DNA of 64,000 nt from Chrysomallon squamiferum (taxonomy: Eukaryota > Animalia > Mollusca): NCBI GenBank assembly GCA_012295275.1, contig CM022673.1, positions 23,746,001 to 23,810,000 on the forward strand. The letters are read 5' to 3'. How positions within the stretch are numbered: position 1 is the first letter of the stretch; each line of letters begins with the position of its first letter. Of this stretch, positions 2,086 to 63,911 are shown piece by piece. A program made the position numbers and the translations under genes. The notes beneath the pieces were generated by a model. That model was not told the DNA's origin and did not search any database. It saw only the letters and a list, made by a program, of their open reading frames with translations.

Positions 2086-2325
2086 GTAAGTCCTGAATTA
2101 CACATGTATTTTACAATCTGCTTAAATTATCATTTGTTCCACGTTCACTGGGGTTGTAAATCTATTTTTGGTGTTAAATTTAAAGCGTGGGTGAGTAATT
2201 TACATGGACGGTTGAACTACAACACAGTCTCAAATTGCGTGTTAATTTGTACTGCAAATGGGAGGAAAGAAGATAATTATTGTAGTGTCTTTTACTTTAT
2301 AGTTCGATGTAATAATACATATTAA

Positions 2326-2368
<43 letters not shown>

Positions 2369-4732
2369 TTTTAAAGCATCATAATTTCTCAATTTATAAG
2401 TGAGAAAACTGCGTTCATTTTAGCGTAGTCTAAAAGAAATAATTACATGTCATCGTATTTCTCAAACAAAAAGTCAGATTAATAACATATTTGATGTGAT
2501 GTAAAACTCATTCCACCGGACAGATCTGGTTTCACTCTGAAATGAGCCATGTGTTGAAATTAATCATAAATAACCACAAACGACACACAGTTATAAACGA
2601 ATGAATCATCTCATCTCACCTTCTTCTTCTTCTTCTTCTTCTTCATCTTCGTTAATTATTAACAAGACAGTCTAGAATGTCAGTAACGTTCTTATTCTAG
2701 TTAATTATGTATAAAACAGTGATAGCGTAAACAAGTAATGTCTAAAGTAGAAATGTGTGTGGTAAAAGTACAGAACATTTGTCTCGTTAATTCTTAATTA
2801 GAAATGGTTAGACTCAGCGCGTGCACCCTGGAGGCGAGTCTCAAACAGAAAAATTACAAGTGTCATCGGTGCCTGCAGGTCACAGTTAGTCGTCTGTGTG
2901 TCTGTTTGTTTCCAACGAATTCATTTCACAGTAAATTTCTTCATTTTTTAAATTTAAATAATCCCCCGTCACCGGCATTACCCCTTCTGTTAACTGTCTA
3001 ATCAAAATGGCGTCCGATAATGTGTAATTAGTTGTCTTCCAAACTGCAACATCGTCTTACTGTTTGGTGTGAAAACGAACATTTGGTATCTGTTTAGGTA
3101 TTATGTATTATGCATAGACTTGAAAGCGTTATGGATGTTTTAAAATAGTTAATAACGATTTTTCGCTTCTATGACGTTATATTTAGAGTAGTGTTAAAAA
3201 TGTATGTTAAATTTGTTTAAAATATATATATCTAACCGTGCACTGGTTATTTTCGTTACTTAAAACAAGAGCTGTTTGAATTATAGTTAATAACAGAAAC
3301 ACAATACTCTTGCGTAATATCTTTGTTACGTAGAGATAATTATTATGTGAATAGCACTGACATAATATTTGTGTAATTTAAACATACGTGATATTGTTAT
3401 CTGAATAATATAAAACGTGTTATTACTGCTTATGTGACAGATTCAAAATGACTAAAGTTGACGAAATTCATTTCGTTTCTTATAATGGAGACAAAATGCT
3501 TAGAATCTTTAATATTTTAAAAAGTTTATACGTTCAAATGTCAACACTTTGTTTATTCAGTAAATAAAAACAACATGAATATTATCAACGAAAATCAATA
3601 ACAAATAACTAAAACTGAAAAAAAAAAAATTAATTTAAATTTGTTTCATGTTTTTTGTTGTTTTTAAAGAGATAATAAATATGACTTTTGTCATTGTTTG
3701 AATGGTGATGGTGATGATAATAATAATAATAAATCTGTTGGATTAAATTCAGTCATTTAAATTATTGTCGTCACTGTATTATATTTACCTTATTGCTTCT
3801 ACTACTAATAATACGACAAAATAAAATAAAAGTGGATGTGTTACGGTAGACATGTATATGGAATCAGGAGATAGGTACAGTATAATATATTAAAATGAAG
3901 TTAACCAAATAAATGTATTTATTTTATACACAACAGTAATAATGTAATGTATGTACTAAGCTCGCTCATGCTAAAGAACTGACAAATCTTATTAGCCTTG
4001 TCAAAACACAGATAACGAAGTTAATGGAATACAATCGTGATCAATGAAAGTAATGTCTTCTGTTCCTGTGTGCATTCGAGCTTTTCCCTTTTGTAGTAAT
4101 CAATGACATGCATCTGTGAGTTTTAGACAAATTTAATTTTTTATACTGAACGTTTAATTAAAATTCTGATTATAGTTACTGATGTAGAGTTTTAAAAACA
4201 CCAGAGACTGAATTCATTGATTTCATTTTTTTTCTTCAACAGAATATATCACATAGATTTAAAATGTCATTTCAATATATATTATAAAGTATATAGCCTT
4301 TCAGAGGTATAAAAATAAATTATCATGCATATGTGCAACAATTAGTATGATTTATTATAAAACAGCTTTGTCACAAACGAGTGCATTTCAGAAAGGTCCT
4401 TAAAAATTAAGATTTCATAAAAATGACAATTGTGCGTAAGCGGCATGAGAAAAATTAAATATCAAAAAAAAAATCTAAACTTTGGAGCTATCTATCTGGC
4501 TGACAACTTTAAATTTTTTATCACTGAAATTAGAATGAAAAGATCTACAGCTGTAATTTGGAATCAACCTTTTTATTTCCACATAGAAAGTCACTTTGGA
4601 GTACCTATTCAATGTGTGAAACTATATGGGTAGATAATATTAAATGCTGTGTTTGTTTTTTTATGTAAAATACTTCTTAATTGGTAATTTGAGTGTATTA
4701 TATACTTTGTGTTTTACACACACACACACAAA

Positions 4733-4778
<46 letters not shown>

Positions 4779-6987
4779 TGTATGCGTGTTTGTATGTATT
4801 ATCATTGATTTTCATGCTATCGGCATGAAGCTAATACAGTATTGGGATTATTTAACTGGATATAAATATGATATTTGTAATACAGGTTTACCTATAATTT
4901 TGCGGACATTAATGGTCCGGCACCATTGTTATTTTTAATTTATTAATTTTTTATTTTACTTTTTTTAATTCGTTTTTTTTTTTTTTTTTTTTTTTTATTG
5001 TTACAATTCTATTTCCGAATCATATCATAGTTTTCATCACCCTGACATTTCACTTCTTAAATATTTTATTCTGGAAAAAAAAAAAAAAAAAAAATTTTTG
5101 TTTACTTGAATGACATTTGGATTTTTTAATTGTTTTTTTTTTATTATTATTTTTTTTATTTATTCATTTTTTAAGACATATTTTAAATGTTAACAGGACA
5201 TTGATCAATCACGTAACATTTAGCAAGATCAATGACGTCAGACACTAATACCACTCGTGATAAGCTACTGTGAATGAAACAAACAAAATGAAGTCTCCTG
5301 TTAAAATTCATATAACCAGAGACTATTTTTAGGATTTTTTAATAAAAATTTTGTCACGCTATATACATGATCTGCCATGAGCGGCATCTATTCATAGAAA
5401 ACTGCCCGCTTAAAAACACACAAATCAAATACAAGTGAAATTTTACACGTTTTATTGCTTCAAGTTGTAATGAAAAGCATTTGAAGTATTTTTTATTGAA
5501 AGCATAAAAGCAAAAGAGAAGACTACGATAAAGAAACATTAATGTCTTGTAAACTTGCTAATAAAGGAAAACCACGTTTTAATTTTAATATAGAACTTTC
5601 TATGTTTTTAAAATATTATGGAAAAATTTAACTCGTCTCATAACAGGGCCCATTTCATTTTATTTTGTTGGTTTTTTTTTAATGTTAGGATTATAATAAT
5701 GATGCCGATTACTAATACAACTACTACAGCAACAACAATTTTACATACTACTACTGCTATTACTAAACGTACAACTACTAGTACTACTACAATTATTATT
5801 ATTATTATTATTATTATTTGCTTTTCATTTCAGGTTATTTTCACTTCACAGTTTTGCTTACTCAGAGACCAAGTCAGCTGTCAGACACACACATCTTCAA
5901 CTCCAGTTTTATAGAAAGCGTGACGTCACAGGGACAAGTCTCTGTCATAGAGAACATGACGTCACGAGGCTACGTCACTGTTACAGAGAACACCACAGAG
6001 TGTCAGCCCATCACCGACAGCAGACTTCAGTTAACTTCACAAATCAACTTCACTGACTTCATCGAAATTATTACAATGGGACTGAAAAACACATTCAGTT
6101 TTGAAACACGCGTTTCAGCGGTCGACCCTAATAAAATAACGTTTTTACTACGAGCAGACGACAGACAAAATCTTAAGGATTTTTTGATAAGTATCTCTGA
6201 CGGAAGTGTCAGCCGGAAGTTGGTGTCGTATCTGTTCAAATCATGTGACTGCGCCTATTTCCAATGTGCAGGGTTTCAGCATCGATCCCATAGAAGTGGC
6301 GCACTACCAAGAAATTTACATGGCTTTTCAAGGTAACATTTATTCACAAAATTAATATTATAAATTTATTAGTCGTCAGTTTTGTTTCTTTGATTATATG
6401 CACGAATGTCCGTGTGAAAGTATCTATATGTGTACCTGTTCGATTCTACATTGCTAACTCTTATTTTAATTTTTATATTATTAGATCCTATGGTATGTAC
6501 AGTGGACTTCACGTCAGCAAACAAATACAGCGGATATTTCGTAATACTCTTTGTGACGACGATGTCGGTGTTGCCGTACTGTTCTATCGTGCTGTTGGCC
6601 GTGGTGAGTATGTTTCGCTGCTGCCTCGGCTCTGTGGACGTGACGTCAGACGAATGGTCTAAGAGTAAAAAAGTTTTCATCGGAGGAATTCTCAGCGTCT
6701 TGTTTTGTGTTCCCTATTTCGTCTTTAATGTTCTCAATTTAAAGGGTTGGTCCGTGTCGCTGCACTGGCACACGACAATTCTTGTCCTGCTGTACACCAG
6801 CAGTCTGATTCCCAGTGTGGTCAGCTTTGACTTAAAGTGTATTGGTTACCTCAGCGAATTCTCGCCTTCTCCATCCCGCAAAACGGTGTATTTAAACAAT
6901 GTGGACTTCGAGTTAATGCAGACGCCTTTAACTGACACTGAGAAACTTGATCCTGTCCGCGGAAACATTTTGAACAATACAAATTAA
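1940..6987 (+). CDS. Opsin-like class A GPCR, 3' part (end of TM3 to C-terminus); 5' exons not found in the window
   Basis: Exons 1940-2085, (5834-6332) and 6485-6987. The direct join of 2085 to 6485 reads (R)YYKLF...PLYGWGEFSQYKDPMVCTVDF...LPY...FCVPY...LLYTSSLIPSVV, giving a DRY-like end of TM3, opsin-type GWG-x10-C-x2-D ECL2 and hydrophobic TM4-TM7. Confidence 0.7.
5834..6332 (+). CDS. GPCR extra exon inserted in ECL2 (499 nt, apparent +1 frameshift)
   Basis: ttttcatttcag acceptor in phase 1, aag|gtaaca donor, protein-like open frame with several N-x-S/T sequons; length is 1 nt over a multiple of 3. Confidence 0.55.
6485..6987 (+). CDS. GPCR last exon: ECL2 Cys, TM5-TM7 and C-tail
   Basis: tattag acceptor in phase 1; part of ORF 6430..6987; three hydrophobic helices with TM5 Pro and TM6 xxPY. 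Confidence 0.75.
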
Positions 6988-8099
6988 TAATTTTAATTAA
7001 AACTGAGAAGATGGATGGTTTACTCACGTGAGATACACCACGTGAGATTTGTTATATACGTTTACAAATATATATAAAATAATTTTTAGTCTCATTCTGT
7101 TGTGTGTTTTGTTCAAGTGTGTTTTAGTGACTAGTTTAAGGGTTAGAAAACTGATAGTTAAAACTGTTTTCAGTATCACTCCGAAAAACTGTTTTTTTTT
7201 TTTTTAACAAATCTACGTGGAACTAGTCTACAGTCATGCAGAACAAATCTAATCATATAGAACTAATCTAGGAGGCATATAGAACAGATCTATTCATATG
7301 GATCAAATCTAAAGGCAGATAAAACAAGTCACACAGAATGAATCTTGTGAGCTGGAACAAATCTATCCATGTAGAACAATTTTAAAATCAGATATAAAAC
7401 AAATCTTGTCACGTAAAACAATTTATTCACGTGCAACAGTTACACAGTTCTAAAGTAATGCCCAGAGGGGGAGGGGACACTAGGGCTGGGTATCATATAT
7501 CACTGTGCTGATTATTTGTTTGAGGTTTCCAGTTTGTGTTGTATTAAACTGCTGAACGTCTAAAGTTTTGGGACCATCACAAGCGGCTCTGCTCCTAAAT
7601 CCCGGTGGATTCCTAGAAATGAAAAATCGTAAATAACGAGATGACAAAACGAAAATGTTGCAGTAAATGAAAACACGTAACGAAGCATTAAATATAATTC
7701 CAGAGTTTAATTTGTAATATCAAACCATACATTCTGTGGTGCCTATTTTGGTCTGGATTGTAATTCATTTTGTCTGTCTTTTTTGTATTTTTTTTGTTCA
7801 AATTATTTTCAATCGATTTTAATATTTCGCTTGGTATTTTTCCGGTCTAGAGTTGTGTATTGTGTACACATGTGTAGACAATCAGAAAAATATTATATTT
7901 ACCACTACAGAACTAATCTATCTTCTCTTTGCCAACTTTTTCTCGATCAAATGACAGAACTAAAATCATTAGTTTGGCTGAATCAAATGACAAGAAATAC
8001 TGAATGTTTCGATTTAAATTATTTTATTTTTATTATTTTTGTTTTTATGTTGATGGGTTCTTGTCCTTTCTTATTTCTCTTTTAATATCTGGTTTAGAG

Positions 8100-14508: not shown

Positions 14509-14859
14509 TAGATGTATGTATGTAAATATAAATAAGATATATTTATATCTATATTTACAAACACACACACCCATATAGGTATGTATGTGTGTGTGTGCGT
14601 GCCAATATATATATATAGTCATTTTGATCAGACGAGCCCCTCACACACACACGTACACACAGTCACATCACTTGGTTGTATCCGCGTCTAACAGCGTGAG
14701 TTAGCAAAGCAGTGTGACCACAAATGGGTACACGTCTGATTTCATCCCATAAAAGGAAAGTGACAGAAAGACGTCGTTGTGTCTCTGTGTCTACTGATTA
14801 ATAAGAAAACCGCTGAGTTAGCCGTATTGATCAGAGAATAAGCCAGACTGTTTTTGTAG

Positions 14860-15457
14860 CAGTGCGGAGGCTAATTGAAATAAGTGGAGAGCGGGAAACG
14901 AACCGAGCGCCGACATCTAACTCAAAAATATCATTGAAGAAAATCGAAACGACTAGACACTGCGGCTCGCGGTGAAATCCTTCCTAGACAGAAACAGACA
15001 CAACTTTGTTGCATATTGGAATGTTCCTAGAGAGAAAAATAGACCGAAACTTATACATATTCATGGGCCGGTTACTGCCCGACTCGACTGCAGCACGAGA
15101 AGCGAATGCGCAATGACAGCGCGCGCGGTGACAGTCGTGTCTTGTTAGCAGACGGCGTGTATAAACACTGGACTGTACGTTCGTTCACCTGACTGTAAAC
15201 AACGTCGCCCACGTTGCACGACCGCGTGTTCTGGCTGTGAGTGGAGTTAGCTCAGCAGCAGGTAGCGCGGCACGGAAATACCGACTGAATGAGTTCACAG
15301 TGAATATGAGTGGTGGCCGTTGTCACTGGAGCAGGACGTCCGACACTCGCCTGCCGCTGTTGAGTAACAGGTAAATTGGAAAATCCAGCCAGCCAGCCGG
15401 TCGCGTTGTGGTTGTTGTTGTTGTTGTTGTTGCGGTTGTGGATGCGACGACTCGAGA
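14860..15457 (+). promoter_or_regulatory. CpG-rich promoter and 5' leader of the six-cysteine gene
   Basis: Locally GC/CpG-rich island in an AT-rich background, TATA-like gtataaa near 15159, directly upstream of the signal-peptide ATG at 15458. Confidence 0.5.
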
Positions 15458-33662
<18,205 letters not shown>

Positions 33663-39619: not shown

Positions 39620-40630
39620 TAAACCCAACAGTTTCTTCTTGTCCTCATGCGTGTTGTATCTTACAGTTCACGTTGTTATTAATATCTACTAATGTAAGAC
39701 AACTTCTTTGAAGTCGCCTCATATTTTCTGTGCATTATCCATGTGATTATTCCTCATTTAGTTGTTTTATAAGTTTTCATAATTTGATGCTGAACTTTTC
39801 AAAGTTTGAGTGCAGCAGTCTTGTCTCTACAGATTTTTCTTTGGATTCAGACTTGTTTTTCAGGCTTTACAATGCTGGAGCCTCAGCTGTTGTTTTGGTT
39901 CGGGTTCTGCTCTGCTTCAACGTGTGCCATTTGAATTTTTTCATTCCAATAAGGTACATATACTTTCCTGACTCCTCTTTGGAAATTTTCTTTGGCAGGT
40001 TTAATGATGTGGATATTGAATTATTTCATTACAGTGTCTATGTCCCTTATCTGGACTTCAATATCTTTGGTCAGCTCATTCGTACAATGCTTGAAAGTTG
40101 TCATTTTGCATTCCTATGTTCCACCTTCTGTGAAGCTGGATGTGTTTTGCTATCACTTAAGGTTAGGAGGACCGAGCTATGCTCCTGCTCCTTGACTAGT
40201 GATTCTATGGACACTATAGAACAGAAAGCAAAGTCGGGGGAGGTTACGGAATGCCAATGCCTCGAGTAGAATGTTGGTTTGATCAAGAGGGTCATTAAAG
40301 AGATTAAATTGTTGTTGTTGTTTTTTCATCCTGCCAGCTTTGTACCTCCTCTCCTCTTCTGTTAATGTTATTGTAACCCCAGCTCTGGACTGGCCACTGA
40401 CCTTAAGGAAGAAGTTACAGTCTGATGTACGGAAAACATTAAGGGACAGTTCTTTGTCATTTGGGCGGTGAAAATTTACAATGTGAAGGTGAGACGTTTT
40501 TGTTTTGATATTGACCTCAGTGAATCCAGCTGCCTCAATATATCTGTTAGTCTCAATGGAACAGATGTTATTTCTTACTAGAGTAACTCCCCCATCCTTG
40601 TTTCTTCCACTGCGATTGCTTCGGAATGTC
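39620..40630 (-). mobile_element. Degenerate non-LTR retrotransposon fragment (AP-like endonuclease and linker, I/Ingi-like)
   Basis: Minus-strand pieces FRSNRSGRNKDGG, RRGEEVQSWQDE, PTFYSRHWHSVTSPDFAFC, RRWN and PYWNE, broken by stops and frameshifts. Confidence 0.7.
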
Positions 40631-40846
40631 TGACCAGAAATGTAGTCACAATAGCTGCATAGTATTGTGATATATTACTTCTGACTTCAGCACTCTAGTT
40701 TCTGTTAGAATTACCTAACCCTTAATCCATATCTGTTTAGTCTCTACCCATTGACTAGTCCGGCATCAGTGTCCCTAACAGAAGCCAAAGCTGGCACCGA
40801 GTCAAGGAATGGACTATGAATAGAATTATTATTACTTTTGGCAAGT

Positions 40847-42995: not shown

Positions 42996-45900
42996 GTTTG
43001 ACTTTTTAAACATTTGTGTTTTCTGTGTGTAAAAGTAAGTAAACCAGCTCAGAAAAATAACTGCTTTCTAAAATAATTGTATGTTTTGTTTATCTTATTT
43101 ATTTTAAAATTTTTTAAAACAGATCATGACATTTATAATCATGACATTTATAAAATATGTAACTGCATTGTTCACATGCTTGTAATAAGTATGAACTGAA
43201 CAACTTTTGATTAAATGTGCTGTTGACAGTAATAATAATTAAACAGTAATACTTAAGATTTCCTTTAGTTGATGTGCCCAAGTGAATGTCTCATGGTCAG
43301 AACATGCTGTTAAAAGAATTTTATGTGGTCAGTTCTTACAAAAATGGAATAGAGATAAACTTAAGACAACTAAAGGCTTTAATTATAGAATGTTTAAAGA
43401 TAAGTTTAAATTAGAACATTATCCATTAAAACTGCCAACAAAACAAATGCTAGAATATTATGTGAATTTTGATTCAGTAATATCAAGCTTCCTATTGAAA
43501 CTGGTAGACGGTTCACTATTGAAAGAGAAGACAGAATATGTCATTTATTTATTTCTAATGTTGGTGATGAATTTTTGTATAAACTTTCCTGATTTTTGCA
43601 AATTATCATTGACAGAGTCAATCTTCTCGGTTAAGTAATAATTAATATATTTTGTACCACTTTAGAAAATACTGTTTAAATTATGTTTTATTTTTATGTT
43701 CTCAACACTTCACTCTGTGCAGTCTTTAGAGAAATAAACTTATTGTTTGCTGGTTCAGCACATTATTGTTTTCTACTAGTAACTGTTGTTTTTAAATACA
43801 GGTTATCAGTCATGACACAAGACGTTTCAGGTTTGCTTTACCCTCTCCAAACCACATCCTTGGTCTTCCTGTGGGTAAGACAACATTCTTGTTATTGTTT
43901 GTATGAGATAATTTTACTTCTTCATCAATCATTTTCAGGTTTTTTTAGAAGATATTTATTCAAGTTATTGTAAATTTGAACATTCAATTTAAACTGTTTA
44001 TTTGTCATTTTAATAATAAGTAATGTAGATTTTATCAGATTCTTTGCTGAATTTCTTTTCTGCATGCATTAACGACTAATAATTTGATAACAAAATAAAT
44101 GACTTTTTAATTAAAATTACTGCATTTTGCATAAGTAGGTTATTCTACTTTATATCTGAACAAAATGCAAACTGAAAATAGTACTATATAACACAAAACT
44201 GTAATGTGTATTTGTTGTGTATTATATAAGTATTCTCTATAATAAGTGCTGGAAGTTTATTATTTTATTTCTTTAGGTCAGCACATTTACTTGACTGCCA
44301 GAATTGATGGTCAGTTAGTGATCCGGCCATACACTCCAGTTTCCAGTGATGATGATAAGGGTTTCATGGACTTGGTTGTCAAGGTGATATCGTTTATTGT
44401 TGATTGTCAATTAAATATTTATTAGTGGTTGTAATCTGATACTATTCTAATAAATAACTTAACTTTATAATTTTATACCTTCTTTTATTTATAATTATGT
44501 TATTATTATTATTTTTTTTTTTTTTTTTTTAAAGGTGTGTTTTCACAATATTTAAACGAAATGTGTTTTCAGGTGTATTTTAAGAACGTTCACCCCAAAT
44601 TTCCAGATGGAGGTAAAATGTCACAGTATCTGGAGAGTATGGAAATTGATGACTACATTGATGTACGTGGACCTAATGGACTTCTTCAGTATGAAGGGAA
44701 AGGTCTGTTTAACTTATTCATTTGTCATGCTAACTAATAACTATATTGTGAGAAAACAGGCCTCAGCTATATTAGTACTACTAATGTTATTATTGTGAAA
44801 TTACCTCAGGAAGATGTATTAAGTAAAAGACTGTTTTATTATTATTACTAACTTATATTTTCTGACAGGTGTGTTCAAAATCCGGCCTGACAAGAAAGAA
44901 GAACCAGTGACAAAGGTGTACAAGAAACTTGGAATGATTGCAGGTGGGACAGGTAAGACAATTTATCATTATTACAACACATTATGTCAACACATTTCAA
45001 AAGTTTTTATATTGATAACATGTCTAGAATGGAGAAAAAAGTTTTTATTTTATTAATCTTTATTTTTGACTAATATATTAACATGAGTAATTCAGCAATC
45101 AAGTAATCCTACTTTAAATGTTACAGCTAGTGAAATATGTTACTTGTTTTTGCTACGGTAATCACTCCCGTGTTACAGTTAGTGAGATACATTACTTCTT
45201 TTTGTTGCAGAATCACTCCCATGTTGCAGCTAATGAGATAGGTCACATGTTTTTGTTACAGGAATAACTCTCATGTTACAGCTAGTGAGATACGTTACTT
45301 GTTTCTGTTACAGGAATCACTCCAATGTTGCAGCTAGTGAGACAGGTGTTTAAAAACCCTGAAGACCAAACAGAACTGTATCTGCTGTTTGCTAACCAGG
45401 TAACTGTGAACAGAAACTTATTACTTTTTATTGTCTTATTTTACCCAAAATTTCAAAATAATAATAAACATAAAAATGTATTTGTTTACTATATATAATA
45501 ATTAAACAATCAAATTACTAATTTTTATTTACTTTTTCTTTCCTTTGTTTCTTAAATAATATATTTAAATGATTAATGATTATGTGTGGGGGTGAGTGAG
45601 AATGTCTATGTATATATGTATTAAAAAAAAATATATCTATACAATTTTTAAGTAAAAGTGTTTGTGTTGTACAGACTGAGGAGGACATACTTCTGAGACC
45701 CGAGCTGGATGAGATTAAAGAGAGTCAGCCCAAACGTTTTCATCTGTGGTACACTCTCGACAAACCTAAAGAAGGTAACAACTTAACAGCACAGTCACTT
45801 ACTGCTAGCAAGTGTGTAACCTTCTGTTAACAAATAATTAACAATAATGTTACCCATGCTTAAAAACATTATTAATAACTATAGTGTCCCACTGAAAACT

Positions 45901-49213: not shown

Positions 49214-50144
49214 TTTTGTATAAACTTTCCTGATTTTTGCAAATTATCATTGACAGAGTCAGTCTTCTGGGTTAAATAATAATTAATATGTTTTGTACCT
49301 CTTTAGAAAATACTGTTTAAATTATGTTTTATTTTATATGTTCTCAACACTGCACACTGTGTAGTCTTTAGAGAAATAAACTTATTGTTTGCTGGTTCAG
49401 CACATTATTGTTTTCTACTAGTATCTGTTGTTTTTAAATACAGGTTATCAGTCATGACACAAGACGTTTCAGGTTTGCATTACCCTCTCCAAACCATATC
49501 CTTGGTCTTCCTGTGGGTAAGACAACATTCTTGTTATTGTTTGTATCAGATAATTTTACTTCTTCATCAATCATTTTCAGTTTTTTTAGAAGATATTTAT
49601 TCAAGTTATTGTAAATTTGAACATTCAATTTAAACGGTTTATATGTCATTTTAATAATAAGTAATGTAGATTTTATCAGATTCTTTGCTGAATTTCTTTT
49701 CTGCATGCATTAACGACTAATAATTTGATAACAAAATAAATGACTATTTAATTAAAATTATTGTATTTTACATCAGTAGGTTATTCTACTTTATATCTGA
49801 ACAAAATGCAAACTGAAAAATAGTGCTATATAACACAAAACTGTAATGTATATTTGTTGTGTATTATATAAGTATTTTCTATAATAAGTGCTGGAAGTTT
49901 ATTATTTTATTTCTTTAGGTCAGCACATTTACTTGACTGCCAGAATTGATGGTCAGTTAGTGATCCGGCCATACACTCCAGTGTCCAGTGATGATGATAA
50001 GGGTTTCATGGACTTGGTTGTCAAGGTGATATCGTTTATTGTTGATTGTCAATTAAATATTTATTAGTGGTTGTAATCTGATACTATTCTAATAAATAAC
50101 TTAACTTTATAATTTTATACCTTCTTTTATTTATAATTATGTTG

Positions 50145-50177
<33 letters not shown>

Positions 50178-53100
50178 TGTATTTTCACAATATTTTAACG
50201 AAATGTGTTTTCAGGTGTATTTTAAGAATGTTCACCCCAAATTTCCAGATGGAGGTAAAATGTCACAGTATCTGGAGAGTATGAAAATTGATGACTACAT
50301 TGATGTACGTGGACCAAATGGACTTCTTCAGTATGAAGGGAAAGGTCTGTTTAACTTATTCATTTGTCATGCTAACTAATAACTATATTGTGAGAAAACA
50401 GGCCGCAGCTATATTAGTACTACTAATGTTAGTATTGTGAAATTATCTCAGGAAGATGTTGCTGTATCTAAATGGTGTTATAGTTAACATTGTTACAGTT
50501 TACGATGTTTAGGGGAACCGGAATAAGGGAGATAGTATTATATGACGTCACCGGGAGCGTGCGTCAGTTTTTGTTCGTAACCATTTTTGAAACGAAATAA
50601 ATTGTTTGGAAATTGAAATGAACTTTATGTTTTAATGTTAAAACGTAACAATTGGCGACGAGGATGGGATAACACGTGTTGAACTGTTTTTTGAAATGAT
50701 CTATTTATGAAATATGGCTACCTACGGTATAGTTGAAGAGTTTGATCTAGAAAGTTCCGATTGGGATGAATACATCGAACGTTTGGAACAGTATTTGTTG
50801 GCGAATGATGTTGACGATGCCGAAAAGAAAAGTTCCATTTTGTTGTCCGTATGTGGTGCCAAGACTTACAGGTTGATTTGAAATCTGACTTCGCCTGAGA
50901 AACCGGCAAGTAAGACTTAAGAACAATTGAAAACTTTGATAGGGAATCATCTCAAACCAAAACCTTTGGTGATTGCGGAACGGTTCAAATTCTATGAACG
51001 GAAACAAGAGCCGGGGAGACTGTAAGTGAATTTTTGGCTGAATTAAGAGAATTGACAGAACATTGTGAATTTGGTGCATTTTTGACAGAAGCATTAAGAG
51101 ACATTTTGGTCAGTGGTCTGTCTGAAAAGTCTATACAGAAAAAACTTCTCTCTGAACATGACTTGTCACTGAGGAAAGCCTTGCAAATAGCTGTTAGTAT
51201 GGAAATGGCGAAATCAAAAGAAAAAAATAGAAAGACAGGAAAGCAAACAGATGGAAAAAGGAAAAAATAAATTTCCAAAGTTAAAAAAGAAAAATTCTAA
51301 ACTGAATGTTGTTAATCAAGATTCTGATAGGGACCTGGCGGAATCAGAAGGTGGTACCAGTGATTCGGAAATTGAAAATGCTGAATCTGAAACAGGTTTA
51401 AAAATTCATGAGGTTCATGAAGAATCTGGAAGTAATGAAACTGAATCAGAAATTATAAAAGCTGTTCTTGAAAATAAAGAGGTTGCAATGGAAAGAAATG
51501 ACAGTGATTCTGAACAGTCAATTTTCACAGTGAAATCTTCGAAAGCGAAAGAAATTCAAATTTCATTGGAACTCAATGGTGTGCCATTCAAAATGGAAGT
51601 AGATACAGGTGCTTCTGTATCAATAGTTTCTAATAAGAGTTATCAGGAAAAACTGAAGAAAACAGTGCCATTGAAATCAACATCGATTGTGTTGAAAACT
51701 TATACAGATGAAGTGGTGCCAGTCCTTGGGCAAATTGAGGTGACTGTTAAATATGGAAAGCAGAAAAAACTTTTACCTTTAATTGTGGTGAAAGGAAATG
51801 GACTAACTTTGTTTGGACAGAATTGGTTCCAAAACATTCAGTTGGACTGGAACAGTATTAAGATTATGAAAGCCTGTGGAAACCCTGAAGATATGTTCAG
51901 TAGATATTCAAATTTTTCAAATGAGTTGGGAACAGTAAAAGGCGTAAGAGCTCATCTGAAAGTGAAAGAGATGCTACTCCAAAGTTTTTCAAGACTAGAC
52001 CAGTACCTTATGCTTTGAAGGAAAAGATTGCTGATGAACTTCACAGACTTGAAGCAGAAGGAATTGTAGAAAAGGTGGATTTTTCTGAATGGGCTTCTCT
52101 TATTGTACCTGTTTTAAAACCTGACAATACCATTCGCATTTGTGGCGATTTCAAGGTTACCATAAATCCTGTGTTGGAAGTGCCTGAGTACCCTTTGTCC
52201 ACTGCAGAAGACATTTTCAGCAAACTCAATGGAGGACAAAAGTTCTCAAAACTGGATTTGTCACATGCATACCAGCAAGTGTTGCTTGATGAAGAGTCGA
52301 GGAACTATGTCACAAACAATACTCACCCTGGACTTTATCGCTATACAAGGTTGCCATTTGGAGTTGCTGCAGTTTTTTTTCAACAAACTATGGACAAAGT
52401 GGTTCAAGGGCTAAAAGGTGTAGGTTACATTTTGGATGACATCATAGTCACTGGAAAGGATGACACCGAACACTTGAAACATTTGAAAAACACTTTGAAA
52501 TGCCTAGAAAAATATGGAATTCAACTGAAAAGGTCCAAATGTGCACTGATGAAAGATGAAGTTGAGTACTTTGCATTTATTGTGAACAAAAATGGGATTC
52601 AACCTTCTGAAAGAAAAGTTGAAGCTATTCTGAAAGTGTCTGAACCTAAGAACAAGAGTGAGTTGCAATCTTGGTTAGGTATTGAGAATTACTATTGCAG
52701 GTTTGTATCCAACATGTCAACAGTGGTGGTACCGCTAACAGCATTGTTAACCAAAGATACAGAGTGGAAATGGAGTGATGATTGTTACAAAGCATTTTCC
52801 AAAGTGGGAAAACTGTTAGCATCATCTGAAATTCTTGTCCACTATGACCCAATGAAACCAGTAATGTTGGCAGTAGATGCATCTGCACATGGTCTTGGAG
52901 CGGTAATATGACTTGGAAATGAAGGATCAGATAGGCCAGTAGCATACACTTCTAGAACTCTGACATCAGCAGAACGCAAGTATTCCCAAATTGAGAAAGA
53001 AGCACTGGCAATCATTTTTGGAATACACAAGTTCCATCAGTGCCTGTATGGTAGAAGATTTACTTTGTTCACAGATCATAAACCACTGACAATGATTCTT

Positions 53101-56100
53101 GGACCTAAAAAGAATATTCCTGTTCTGACAGCCTCACTACAGCATTGGGCTATTCAGTTAGCCACATATCAGTTTGACATTAAGTACAGAAAAACTACCA
53201 AAAATGGAAATGCTGATGCACTGTCCCGACTACCACTTCTGCAAACTGAAGAAATATCTGAAAGTGTGTTTTGGCATGAAGACAAGCAAGCAATGAGAAA
53301 TCAAATCAATGGATTACCTATCACTGCAAGAAATATTGCTAAAGCAACTGAAGTTGACGAAGTATTATCTCGGGTTGTACATTATAACATGTATGGATGG
53401 CCAAAAGAGTCTTCTATTTCACCTGAGCTGTTACCTTATTTCAGAGTGAAAGATGAATTAACCGTGGAGGAACATTGTCTTCTCAGAGGAATGCGAGTGA
53501 TTATTCCCGATAAATATCGAACAGATATTCTGCATTATCTTCATGAAAATCATGCTGGAATTGTGCGAATGAAATCTTTGGCTAGAACGCATGTGTGGTG
53601 GCCTCATTTTGATATTGACATAGAAAAGAAAGTTAGCAAGTGCAAGTGTTGCCAACTACAACAAACAGTCATGCCAAAAAGTACAGCTAATGCATCGATT
53701 TGGCCCACCAAACCATGGCAAAGACAACATGTTGATTTTGCTGAACCATTCATGAAAGAAATGTTCATGATTGTGGTGTTTGCACATTCTAAATGGATGG
53801 AAGTTTTTCGAATGTCCAGTACCAGAGCAACGCATGCAGTAGAGACATTGAGAAATCTCTTTGCAAGTTATGGAATGCCAGAGCAGTTGATTTCTGATAA
53901 TGGACCTCAGTTTGTTGCAGAGGAACTTGAAACATTTCTTAAGAAAAATGGAGTGAAACACATCAGATCAGCTCCATACCATCCAAGTTCAAATGGTGAA
54001 GCAGAAAGAGCTGTTTGTACTTTCAAAACTGCAATGAAAACAGTTGAACATGAGTCACGAACCATGAACCAGAAGATTTCATCATTCTTGTTTGCATATC
54101 AGAAAACTCCACACTGTACTACAAAATGTACTCCATCAGAATTGTTTCTTGGCAGAAGTGTTCGAACGAGATTGGATATCTTGTGTCCAAGTTTGGAGAA
54201 CTCTGTTAAAAAGAGAACTATTCCAAAAGCAAGTAAAACACGGGTGTTCAATGTTGGAGATTCAGTACAAGTGAAGAACTACAGAGGATCTGACAAGTGG
54301 TTGAGTGGAAAAGTACTGGGTCAACTAGGACCTGTTACCTACAGAGTGAAAGTTGGAGATTTTGTGTGTAAAAGACATGTGGATCAACTTCGTAAATGTG
54401 TGCATTTGGAGGATAATAGGAACCCTTCCGCTGAACTGTCTGCAATTGGTACTGAATCTGAAATGGAATTTGTTGAACCAACCGTTCAGGTGGAAGAGAC
54501 TGAGATGAAAAACAGAACAGTTACTTCTAATGCCATAGAGGATGCTTCTAATGCCATCGACGATACTGTTGACGATGTATGCAACTACCAATACCGTCAA
54601 CCCCAAGATGTCCTAGATGTGCTTGAAAAACAACTCAAAGACTGATAGAAACTATTTAAAGTGATTTAATCTGAATCTGTGTAATACGGAATTCACTGAA
54701 AGATTGTTGAATTAGTGTTATTTTTTTATTATATTTTTTTTAAATAATATTTGTTATTTGAAGTTCCATATGTGACCAATGGACATACTTGATAAACTGT
54801 AATTGACCTATTATGGTGTCCAATGAAAAAAAAAAAAAAAAAGTTTGTTTGTTAAGTTCAAAGTTCAATTGTTTAATTATTACTAATTAGTAAATCACAC
54901 AAATTTATTTTAGAATTTTACATGTAACACTATTTGTGGGTAACTTGAAAATTTGGAGGGGAGGAAGTGTTGTATCTAAATGGTGTTATAGTTAACATTG
55001 TTACAGTTTACGATGTTTAAGGGAACAGGAATAAGGGAGATATTATTATATGATGTCACTGGGAGCATGTGTCAGTTTTTGTTCGTAACCATTTTTGAAA
55101 CCATGTTTTTGGAAACTGAAATGAACTTTATGTTTTAATGTTAAAACATAACAGATGTATTAAGTAAAATTATTATGAAATTACCTCAGGAAGATGTATT
55201 AAGTAAAATTATTATGAAATTACCTCAGGAAGATGTATTAAGTAAAATACTTTTTTATTATTATTACTAACTTATATTTTCTGACAGGTGTGTTCAAAAT
55301 CCGGCCTGTCAAGAGAGAAGAACCAGTGACAAAGGTGTACAAGAAACTTGGAATGATTGCAGGTGGGACAGGTAAGACAATTTATCATTATTACAACACA
55401 TTATGTCAACACATTTCAAAAGTTTTTATATTGATAACATATCTAGAATGGAGAAAAATGTTTTTATTTTATTAATCTTTATTTTTTACTAATGTATTAA
55501 CATAAGTAATTCAGCAATCAAATAATTCTTTAAATGTTACAGCTAGTGAGATATGTTACTTGTTTTTGGTACAGTAATCACTCCTGTGTTACAGTTAGTG
55601 AGATAGGTTACTTGTTTTTGTTGCAGAATCACTCCCATGTTGCAGCTAATGAGATAGGTCACATGTTTTTGTTACAGGAATAACTCCCATGTTACAGCTA
55701 GTGAGATACGTTACTTGTTTCTGTTACAGGAATCACTCCAATGTTGCAGCTAGTGAGACAAGTGTTTAAAAACCCTGAAGACCAAACAGAACTGTATCTG
55801 CTGTTTGCTAACCAGGTAATTATGAACAGAAACTTATTACTTTTTATTGTCTTATTTTACACAAAATTTAAAAATAATAATAAACATATAATAATTAAAC
55901 AATCAAATTATTAATTTTTATTTGCTTTTTCTTTTCTTTGTTTCATAAATAATATATTTAAATGATTAATGATTATGTGTGGGGGTGAGTGAGAATGTCT
56001 ATGTATATATGTATTAAAAAAAAATGTAAAAGTGTTTGTGTTGTGCAGACTGAGGAGGACATACTTCTGAGACCCGAGCTGGATGAGATTAAAGAGAGTC

Positions 56101-62100: not shown

Positions 62101-63911
62101 TATATTTTGTATATTGTTAACATTTTAACGTTTCTACACTTTGATATTTCAGGCGTATCCACAGGAGAAACCATTTGCACAGAAAGACTACACCATTGAC
62201 CCGCGACATCTTGTTCTCCTTCATGGCTTTCAGCTGCAAGGTTTAATGTTTCTCCATTAATTTACATTTTTACATTTTGTTTATTTTCAAATGTCATATT
62301 CTACATTTTACTTCTCAGAAGTTTAAATTCTTTTATGTTTTCTCATTTACTCGGTGGACGAGCAACGTTTACTAACTGTATACAGTGTTATTAATTATTT
62401 CTCACAGAACGCTCTCACACACCAACAGTGGAAGATGATAAACAAACAAACGAGTTGATAAAGCCTGGTCTGGGAGGTGAGTTTCTGTTTATTAAATCTG
62501 GTTATTGATTTATTTTTATAATACAAGTTTAAAGTGTTGACTGTAATTGTCATTAATGATTAAACAGGTATATTGTAGGTGTCACTTAGTTAATAATCCT
62601 TTCGCAAGAATGATAAGATAGTTATTTCTGATTTCAGGAACTGCAGCAGGTGGGGTAACAAGAACACACTCTCCAGCTCCTCCTGGTAGCTGTGATGGTC
62701 AGTTCAAAGTACCTGGTCCAGCAACATCAGCTGTCCCTGCCCAGTCTAGTAAGTGTTTGGTTAATATGTAGTCATCTGACAAGTAAGTGTTTACTTTATA
62801 TGTAGTCATCAGACAATTAAGTGTTTACTTTATATGTAGTCATCAGACAATTAAGTGTTTACTTTATATGTAGTCATCAGACAATTAAGTGTTTACTTTA
62901 TATGTAGTCATCAGACAATTAAGTGTTTACTTTATATGTAGTCATCAGACAATTAAGTGTTTACTTTATATGTAGTCATCAGACAACAAAGTGTTTATTT
63001 AATATGTAGTCATCAGACAAGTAAGTGTTTTCTTTATATGTAGTCATTAGACAACAAAGTGTTTATTTAATATCTAGTCATCAGATAAGTAATTGTGTAT
63101 TTTATATGTAGTCACCAGATAAGTGTTTACTTAATTAATGTTATCAGTCAACTAAGTGTTTGTTTAATGTGAAGTCATCCATAAAATCGACTTAAATTCT
63201 AATCATAGCTCAATTAAGTGTTTAATCAATGTGTAATTATCATACAAATGCTTATTAATCTTCAGTCTAGTAAGTGTTTACTTAATCAGACAGTAAAATG
63301 TTTACTAAGTGTAATAAGCAGATAAGCAGATGTCTATGATATGTAGAATATTTTTTTTTTTTTTTTTTGTTATTTTAGATTTGGCAGCAATGCCTCAACA
63401 TCCATCTCCCCAAGGATTATCTCCCCTGAATCCTCAGTCACAGGCCTCTAATCCGTCAGTCGCCCCCACTCAGCTATCTCCCGGTCCCATGCAGCCACCC
63501 ATACAACAGGTGCGTCCTGTCATGTCACTGCCCTCTGGTGCAGCGATGCAGACACCAAATATTGTGACATCCATATCTGGCGGGATGACTGCAAACACAG
63601 GGCCACCGTTACGACAGGTATTACCTCTACAGGTAAAAATTATTGTCATATTTGAATATTTACTGAATAGTTACCTAATTAAAAAAAGATCTTGTATTAC
63701 AGCAAATTCATTTGTGTTACTGTAGAGTTAAAATCAGCAGTGTGACAAGTATAAGATCAATTGTTTTTTTTTTGTTTTTTTTACAGTTTAAAGTAGTTGT
63801 TATTAGCTTTCAAAATTGTTACAGTTTGTCTTTTACATTTTTATTTAATTATATATTCTAAATAAAAGACTGTCTTTCAGGGTATGGTGAAACAGGAACC
63901 TGTAAATGCAG
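58646..63911 (+). CDS. MED25: Mediator subunit 25 (VWA domain and Pro/Gln-rich linker), truncated by the window end
   Basis: Exons 58646-58770, 59505-59550, 60038-60162, 60661-60759, 61274-61394, 61949-62014, 62153-62240, 62408-62476, 62638-62748, 63379-63632 and 63881-63911 join in frame; DVVFVVEMTANL, CILVCNSPPY, RGIHLSIISPKKIPAL and DPRHLVL match the MED25 VWA domain. Confidence 0.93.
59505..59550 (+). CDS. MED25: MED25 exon 2
   Basis: HFNGAPADPTDYGND. Confidence 0.9.
60038..60162 (+). CDS. MED25: MED25 exon 3
   Basis: FSSTLYDLVTFHSGDIAP...FISWLDDA. Confidence 0.9.
60205..60490. repeat. 22-bp intronic minisatellite (aattcacaaatttaaatatcag)
   Basis: About 13 tandem copies seen directly. 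Confidence 0.85.
60661..60759 (+). CDS. MED25: MED25 exon 4
   Basis: FIGGEAQRFSHISEGLGTALQVFD. Confidence 0.9.
61189..61232 (+). mobile_element. L2-type LINE/SINE 3' tail stem-loop remnant
   Basis: tgtaaagcaccct...agggtgctgtgtaaat with an 8-bp stem, resembling the common tgtaaagcgcc...ggcgctatataaat tail. Confidence 0.4.
61274..61394 (+). CDS. MED25: MED25 exon 5
   Basis: ITTQRHCILVCNSPPYHLPCQESHDYSGYTSDQLATMLGK. Confidence 0.9.
61949..62014 (+). CDS. MED25: MED25 exon 6
   Basis: RGIHLSIISPKKIPALQKLFEE. Confidence 0.9.
62153..62240 (+). CDS. MED25: MED25 exon 7
   Basis: AYPQEKPFAQKDYTIDPRHLVLLHGFQLQ. Confidence 0.9.
62408..62476 (+). CDS. MED25: MED25 exon 8
   Basis: Phase 1-1 exon RSHTPTVEDDKQTNELIKPGLG with good splice sites. 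Confidence 0.8.
62638..62748 (+). CDS. MED25: MED25 exon 9
   Basis: Phase 1-1 exon TAAGGVTRTHSPAPPGSCDGQFKVPGPATSAVPAQS. Confidence 0.8.
62749..63310 (+). repeat. 34-bp minisatellite starting at the exon 9 donor
   Basis: Unit (g/t)taagtgtttactttatatgtagtcatcagacaa; period confirmed at 62767 and 62801. Confidence 0.9.
63379..63632 (+). CDS. MED25: MED25 exon 10 (Pro/Gln-rich)
   Basis: Inside ORF 63330..63725; ttttag acceptor, cag|gtaaaa donor. Confidence 0.8.
63881..63911 (+). CDS. MED25: MED25 exon 11 (31 nt)
   Basis: tctttcag acceptor, g|gtaagt donor, GMVKQEPVNA. Confidence 0.7.

Follow-up and report, generated by a model that had tools for sequence, protein, structure and literature searches.

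A predicted ferredoxin-like domain within the second extracellular loop of a divergent class A receptor of Chrysomallon squamiferum and abalones

The locus

The DNA considered here is a stretch of 64,000 nucleotides of the mollusc Chrysomallon squamiferum (GenBank assembly GCA_012295275.1, contig CM022673.1, positions 23,746,001 to 23,810,000 of the forward strand), termed the window below, with positions counted from its first letter. It is AT-rich, microsatellite-rich animal DNA. Within its first 7 kb lie three exons of a gene best read as that of a divergent orphan class A (rhodopsin-family) receptor, and the middle one encodes an extra domain within the second extracellular loop (ECL2), i.e., between transmembrane helix 4 (TM4) and TM5. 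An initial annotation, made from the letters of the window, had placed the borders of that exon at 5834 and 6332, and those of its neighbours at donor 2085 and acceptor 6485, and splice signals are present at each. The parts of the gene are:

1940 to 2085, + strand: exon with the end of TM3 (R-Y of the E/DRY motif), intracellular loop 2 (ICL2), TM4 and the GWG that starts ECL2; delimited by splice signals, phase 1 at its end
2086 to 5833, + strand: intron, phase 1, 3748 nt, GT-AG
5834 to 6332, + strand: exon of the inserted domain, with 499 nt as assembled in the window and with 498 nt, or 166 codons of phase 1-1, in what appears to be a second individual
6333 to 6484, + strand: intron, 152 nt, GT-AG
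6485 to 6987, + strand: last coding exon, with the ECL2 cysteine, TM5 to TM7, C-tail and stop

All four splice sites are canonical (donor 2085; acceptor ttcag/G at 5834; donor AAG/gtaaca at 6332; acceptor 6485), and both sites of the insert exon look strong. Exons for TM1 to TM3 were not found within the 64-kb window and would be upstream of it. A direct 2085>6485 join keeps the frame and yields the GWG-x10-C spacing that had been claimed for it.

Conservation of the architecture

How far does the arrangement extend? A HMMER scan with the insert against 1.84 billion representatives yielded two relatives, P0001 and P0002. The latter is Haliotis rufescens XP_048242632.1 (431 aa, Pfam 7tm_1, annotated ‘uncharacterized’), and it has orthologues in H. 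cracherodii (XP_071099239.1) and H. asinina (XP_067655933.1), RefSeq entries also of 431 aa, also uncharacterized and also with 7tm_1. The three abalone proteins all read TM4-GWG-insert-PMIC-TM5, collinear with the window's three exons, and since each carries the insert between GWG and the ECL2 cysteine, the receptor architecture, a domain in ECL2, is on this comparison of sequences real and conserved. Whether the insert sits in this receptor's ECL2 in related genomes had been proposed as a check, and in the three abalones it occupies the same place. Identity between window and abalone is 65% for the TM4 exon (1940-2085, 31 of 48 residues against XP_048242632.1 residues 80-127), 38% for the core of the insert and 27-28% for the last exon (28% for 6485-6987 against Haliotis 284-428, pairwise E 6e-21). 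P0001, an ENA entry, is an open reading frame (ORF) of the insert alone, 44% identical over the matched stretch (E 7.6e-24); it terminates at the same F-Q-G point as the window's donor, and this suggests that the intron is shared. The nearest named relatives are gastropods.

Other searches gave no relatives. Word-index searches with the insert and the last exon against proteins of 292-2000 aa passed none of 314 and 549 candidates respectively, blanks that mean little since the abalone orthologues, though they exist, were missed. None of 106 and 306 pattern matches in metagenome contigs was confirmed, nor any of 149 in prokaryote genomes, and an Atlas search with the insert gave no usable match. 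A transposon match had been named as a finding that would undo the idea of a receptor domain; there is no copy of the insert elsewhere in the window, no Pfam family for it and no BFVD match at E <0.001, and origin as a transposon or local duplicate was rejected. The literature searched, in which subscription journals are mostly not covered, contains no description that we found of the gene or of the architecture and no mention of the abalone accessions; the architecture is apparently undescribed.

Frame of the insert exon and constraint on it

The exon as assembled has 499 nt, entered in phase 1 and left in phase 2, and its inclusion consequently shifts the frame, with a stop at 6660-6662. The RNA data come from three small runs (X1, X3 and X4) kept as contigs, and a further run, X2, covers the introns. 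As X2 spans introns and shows 16 differences from the window in 1259 positions (within the 6333-6484 intron, 4 substitutions and a 2-nt insertion), we take it to be DNA of another individual. The difference that matters here is:

6271 to 6273, + strand: run of G, three in the window and two in run X2; the 1-nt difference that breaks the window's frame

In X2 the sole contig at that point (depth 41.3 of 41.3) has one G fewer, and the exon is then 498 nt, 166 codons, of phase 1-1. The homologues agree: when the tail after 6271-6273 is translated in the frame leading into 6485, 11 of 20 residues are identical to P0001, as compared with 3 of 21 in the frame of the window, and tblastn with P0001 changes frame at 6271-6273. 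These alignments confirm the frame joining 6485 as the correct one for the tail. The in-frame insert of about 166 aa in the initial annotation thus holds for the exon with one G removed, as in X2 and in the homologue frame, and does not hold for the window as assembled, where there is a frameshift. Other ways out were tried and rejected: alternative in-frame GT donors within 5834-6332 are weak and all would remove the conserved tail, and of other acceptors near 6485 only 6531 mends the frame, with loss of the ECL2 cysteine.

What, then, is the extra G? It is likely either an assembly slip or a null allele. That it is real in the animal sequenced, as a loss-of-function allele or one rescued only by a skipped form, is rather unlikely: X2, being from another individual, is no test of the window's own haplotype, but the remaining insert exon and the last exon are without decay, and a 1-base difference in a run of G is a typical long-read slip.

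The insert exon is coding and under constraint. Nine substitutions fall in it (eight in X2 and one in RNA run X3), and seven are synonymous, the other two being T>S and I>L, where a synonymous fraction of 0.22-0.28 would be expected (P 0.0006-0.003). Shuffling of 5836-6270 left that frame free of stops in 1 of 5000 trials, and + strand frames without a stop reach at most 81 aa in the 3.7-kb intron upstream.

Side of the membrane

The class A landmarks are recognisable in P0002, where C3.25 is C54, 25 residues before R79 of E78-R79-Y80, and the ECL2 cysteine, C287, follows the insert; the window keeps the R-Y and the ECL2 Cys. Sequons are concentrated in the insert (6 of 8 in H. rufescens, 5 of 6 in H. 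asinina and, across the three exons of the window, 4 of 5), no 19-mer of the insert is hydrophobic (maxima 0.88 and 0.35), and all four aligned inserts share four cysteines, three as invariant columns and the first offset by one in MAFFT. Taken together these sequence features make it likely that the insert is extracellular.

Predicted fold

AlphaFold2 was run on an alignment of four sequences headed by the insert of H. rufescens. The model's mean pLDDT is 64.5, and it has, in order, strand 1, a disordered loop, helix 1, strands 2 and 3, helices 2 and 3, strand 4 and a last helix. Projected on the window the parts are:

5836 to 5862, + strand: predicted strand 1, directly after GWG-x6 (residues 3-11 of the abalone model, block pLDDT 83)
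5866 to 6045, + strand: S/T-rich, sequon-bearing loop, predicted disordered (32% S+T; sequons NSS, NMT and NTT)
6046 to 6270, + strand: predicted folded core of helix 1, strands 2-3, helices 2-3 and CxC...C, with a conserved sequon N-F/I-T/S at its start
6272 to 6332, + strand: predicted strand 4 and last helix, in the frame joining 6485 (strand 132-139 and helix 141-155 of the model)

Strand 1 is conserved with Haliotis, and 10 of its 11 residues are identical between two abalones. In the core 28 of 74 residues are identical to Haliotis, and residues 61-120 of the abalone model have a block pLDDT of 75-92; the strand 4 and last helix segment has 11 of 20 identical to P0001 and 6 of 20 to Haliotis. 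The loop is the least conserved part, 56% identical between the abalones as against 76% for the core, with pLDDT <50 (residues 13-57 of the abalone model) and a length of 60 aa in the window, 45 in abalone and >100 in P0001. In P0001, residues 13-90, it has grown into a repeat of six-residue period with 12 N-x-S/T sequons. Modelled from its single sequence, the in-frame part of the window gave a poor result (pLDDT 41), with a best Z of 4.5, to dimeric ferredoxin-like proteins.

The insert is thus modelled as a ferredoxin-like domain with a glycosylated loop, as predicted, inside it. The initial annotation had an S/T-rich stalk with sequons NSS, NMT, NTT and NFT ahead of a folded segment; the sequons, the quoted peptide and the S/T richness are all there, but what was called a stalk belongs to the domain itself, as a loop that links strand 1 to helix 1. 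Its proposal of a whole folded domain carried on one exon in ECL2 is borne out by structure prediction and conservation in abalones, with the fold ferredoxin-like.

Resemblance to known domains and receptors

A resemblance to SEA or TRADD-N-like folds had been suggested by eye, and TRADD-N is the best structural match: Foldseek ranked TRADD-N 1f3v_A first (E 0.095, prob 0.94, TM 0.50), and VIA realignment to that chain gave Z 8.5 and rmsd 3.5 with 108 aligned, the next match being at 6.7. Among SEA domains the Z values were 5.6 for GPR126, 5.5 for PCDH15, 5.1 for TROP-2, 5.1 for the dystroglycan complex and 4.9 for TMPRSS6. PDB sequence searches with the three exons, a four-sequence profile and P0001 gave nothing at E <0.2.

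The papers cited from here on were available in part, and what is taken from them holds for those parts. TRADD-N domains of the DEDD2/TRADD clade (PDB 1F3V; Kaur et al. 2021, PMC8195603) have a four-stranded ferredoxin/RRM-like fold with a split second helix, as does the insert by prediction. The two-layer alpha+beta, RRM/ferredoxin-like arrangement with a four-stranded sheet that characterises TRADD-N is found in the predicted model, and the strand 3-helix 3 pattern is similar by eye. From strand 3 to helix 3, 29 residues compare without gaps to human TRADD, with 11 identities for P0001, 8 for the window and 7 for H. rufescens; the comparison was made by eye in Kaur et al.'s alignment on a segment picked post hoc and has no E-value. 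The differences concern context. TRADD-N is found in cytosolic adaptors beside a Death-like or effector domain, and the insert, without a Death-like partner, lies between TM4 and TM5, is sequon-rich, extracellular by topology, glycosylated as predicted and cysteine-bearing. It also lacks, in the beta2-beta3 turn, the uS motif, which is the TRAF-binding Ser67 that defines the TRADD-N interface (PMC8195603, section 8). DEDD2-clade TRADD-N domains occur in molluscs, and retrotransposon-driven fusions have been proposed (PMC8195603, section 11). Capitella ELT87317.1 has TRADD-N, in tandem, before a coiled coil and seven transmembrane helices (7TM), the only fusion to a GPCR (G protein-coupled receptor) among the matches listed there (PMC8195603); there the domain is in front of the 7TM, whereas the present one is inside a loop. 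TRADD-N also stands next to TM helices, of unstated topology, in some entries from cnidarians, echinoderms, hemichordates and oysters (PMC8195603).

Among receptors, the complement C3a receptor (C3aR) is likewise class A with an ECL2 of >150 residues, but that loop is unresolved in structures and largely dispensable (PMC7615941), in contrast to the predicted conserved folded domain here, which precedes the ECL2 cysteine and has its own exon. GPR126, GPR110 and GPR116 also bear an extracellular ferredoxin-like domain on a GPCR, SEA, with S/T-rich glycosylated neighbours; however, they are of class B2, and their SEA domain is in the N-terminal ectodomain with a cleavage motif in the beta2-beta3 loop (PMC6954182), while the receptor here is class A, with its domain inside ECL2 and no cleavage motif. 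Opsins share the 7tm_1 fold, the GWG at the end of TM4 and the ECL2 cysteine, and pseudopsins are similarly without K296 (PMC10097855, PMC10733189). The receptor here is unlike both in that it lacks K296, NPxxY, DKY and N-x-I together, and amine receptors are equally similar to it. In the available parts of those two papers we found no mention of such an ECL2 insert in opsins or pseudopsins (PMC10097855, PMC10733189). Lineage-expanded lophotrochozoan class A receptors have an ECL2 of 25-30 residues (PMC11886862).

The receptor

The window's single exons alone gave no Pfam 7tm_1 match; the abalone orthologues reached 43.8 and 36.6 bits against the curated cut-off of 30.5. Is the receptor an opsin without retinal, as the initial annotation had it? 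There is no TM7 lysine (K296) in the window or in H. rufescens, the first K coming after the helix, and no NPxxY. With the abalone protein as phmmer query of PDB, squid rhodopsin was top at 30.7 bits with 5-HT5A next at 29.5, among 91 class A matches, and the ten Atlas matches listed belong to adenosine-, kisspeptin- and prostanoid-like and other non-opsin clusters. The term opsin scaffold is not upheld by these results. The pseudopsin signatures (DKY 134-136, Tyr306 and N-x-I 310-312) are also absent, with ERY in place of DKY. In pseudopsins DKY was present in 18 of 19, and Tyr306 and Asn310 in 19 of 19 (De Vivo et al. 2023, PMC10097855).

The abalone models P0002, P0004 and P0006 begin 8 residues before an ICL1-like segment, with a single hydrophobic stretch in residues 1-54, before TM3. 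Over residues 1-127, H. rufescens and H. asinina share 97% identity. Either the abalone N-terminus is that of a six-helix receptor or the first exon is missing from all three models.

RNA and the question of skipping

RNA run X3 has one 163-nt contig inside the insert exon (depth 5.6) and X1 one of 255 nt in the last exon (depth 2.1), and X4 has no coverage over 5812-7070. None of the junctions 2085>5834, 6332>6485 and 2085>6485 was seen in these three small runs, and there were no loose ends, the only form in which junctions from 2085 would have been visible. A search for a homologue without the insert, with abalone residues 70-300 against proteins of 237-755 aa, passed 2 of 608 candidates, both with the insert, and the clusters of abalone homologues contain no short isoform. 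The exon had been described as skippable, a switch; with no junction found and the insert included in every full-length homologue found, that description is not upheld, and the domain is likely present in all working transcripts. The skip product is in frame since the exon is symmetric, which is expected of a shuffled module and so is no evidence of a switch.

Interpretation and alternatives

The reading we prefer, with a probability of roughly 0.55, is that an orphan class A receptor carries in ECL2 a glycosylated ectodomain, constitutive, brought by exon shuffling and likely derived from TRADD-N, that serves as lid or docking surface. A phase 1-1 exon with a ferredoxin-like module would have entered an ECL2 intron by exon shuffling, before abalones and the window's lineage parted. 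The chain would enter the domain via strand 1 and leave it via the last helix, both at the receptor in the model, which would let the ECL2 cysteine keep its place. Outside the cell the module would have acquired sequons and four cysteines and given up the TRAF-binding serine, and it would be displayed on the cell surface glycosylated and probably disulfide-locked. There it may act as a lid or docking surface that gates, or replaces, the pocket for a putative extracellular protein or glycan ligand rather than retinal.

Several points weigh against this. The fold model rests on only four sequences. In a wide structural search, which included the TRADD-N NMR chain 1f2h and not the crystal chain, nothing matched at Z 8; 1f2h, at 5.1, was level with SEA domains (4.8-5.6) and with many unrelated ferredoxin-like chains, and an IS200 transposase, at 6.7, was above it. 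HMMER gave no sequence-level match of the insert to TRADD-N or SEA in Pfam or PDB. Where TRADD-N has its uS motif, all four inserts have an invariant Asn, part of a sequon in three of them. The abalone models lack TM1, D2.50, W6.48 and NPxxY, there is no spliced RNA for any junction while the two short low-depth contigs may be DNA, and a ligand of any kind is purely hypothetical.

Is the domain then of TRADD-N descent at all? We think this probable, without classing it as a member of the family. That it is instead an SEA-type or other ferredoxin-like extracellular module, whose match to TRADD-N reflects a shared fold, seems unlikely though it has its attractions: SEA domains are extracellular and stand among glycosylated S/T-rich segments (PMC6954182), a heavily glycosylated setting like that which the sequons and S/T-rich loop predict here, several tie with the TRADD-N NMR chain, and TRADD-N profiles also match dystroglycan according to Kaur et al. 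(PMC8195603). However, the crystal chain leads the next match by 1.8 Z and the best SEA domain by about 3, Foldseek puts it first, there is no Pfam SEA match, and neither a GSVVV/GSIVA-type motif nor a furin site is present in the beta2-beta3 loop in the insert alignment. Doubtful to a similar extent is that the scaffold is a lysine-less opsin, derived like gluopsins and pseudopsins and turned to chemosensing. The squid rhodopsin match (E 1.3e-6) does align GWG-x-YT at TM4, and skipping restores the GWG-x10-C spacing, a spacing not confined to opsins; but 5-HT5A is within 1.2 bits, no opsin cluster is among the ten Atlas matches listed, the pseudopsin signatures are missing, and the available part of the pseudopsin data does not contain the gene's motifs (PMC10097855).

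Somewhat less unlikely, and still clearly behind the constitutive ectodomain on an orphan receptor, is that the membrane part, possibly of six helices, does not signal or is atypical, and anchors and presents the insert for adhesion, scavenging or as a decoy. The absence of TM1 and the loss of motifs in the abalone models are what raise it: all three have one hydrophobic stretch before TM3, and D2.50, W6.48, N7.49 and Y7.53, at positions that we take from the usual class A numbering, are not recognisable, which makes G-protein signalling uncertain. Further, TM5-TM7, at 27-28% identity between window and abalone, are below the insert core at 38%, and the best stretch of Pfam 7tm_1 covers TM2-TM4 only. 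Yet ERY, ICL2 and TM4 are 65% identical between window and abalone, and the N-terminal 127 residues 97% between abalones, as for a kept interface with a G-protein or other partner; the missing TM1 may be an annotation gap. Less probable again is the switch of the initial annotation, in which alternative skipping would give lidded and open receptors. The 498-nt exon is symmetric, 2085>6485 is in frame with GWG-x10-C, and GPR126 is tuned by splicing of an S/T-rich linker (PMC6954182); but a shuffled constitutive module needs the symmetry equally, the splice sites are strong, neither junction nor short isoform was found, and both of the 2 candidates that passed of 608 bear the insert. Very improbable is the conjunction in which TRADD-N, a cytosolic death/immune adaptor module, was shuffled into the ECL2 hairpin of an opsin-derived lysine-less receptor of an early gastropod, as a glycosylated extracellular sensor whose protein ligand drives the receptor from the lid and whose removal by splicing opens the pocket again.

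Class A receptors normally gain ligand-binding domains at the N-terminus. A conserved folded domain in the ECL2 hairpin, with the disulfide cysteine kept, would be a natural domain insertion at the pocket lid and a template for engineering a lid domain. If TRADD-N ancestry is true, a module of intracellular signalling has been relocated to the cell surface. The orthologues are annotated only as ‘uncharacterized’, and surveys filtered on K296, as in the available part of PMC10733189, would drop such receptors.

Other features of the window

Upstream of the TM4 exon are two minisatellite arrays, at 57-290 and 955-1400, with units by eye of about 21 and 18 bp. Within the window, GC and CpG content peak in the kilobase 14601-15600, where GC reaches 57%; an ORF with a run of cysteines at 15368 comes after it. 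This region has no Pfam match and looks like the promoter or first exon of another gene. On the - strand, 40177-40674 is a frame of 165 aa that by eye is like a decayed LINE-type endonuclease, with a weak DUF6759 match only. The stretches 43680-43973 and 49307-49633 (+ strand), about 5.6 kb apart, are near-identical with the same translation, a local duplication or repeat element. At 50998-54645 (+ strand) there is a pol of LTR-retrotransposon type split over several ORFs, with the Pfam domains RVT_1, RNase H and integrase; it appears to be an old copy broken into pieces, and we take it to be Ty3/gypsy-like. Finally, 63318-63725 (+ strand) is a Pro/Gln-rich, GC-rich exon-like frame, without Pfam match, whose likely start codon follows a pyrimidine tract.

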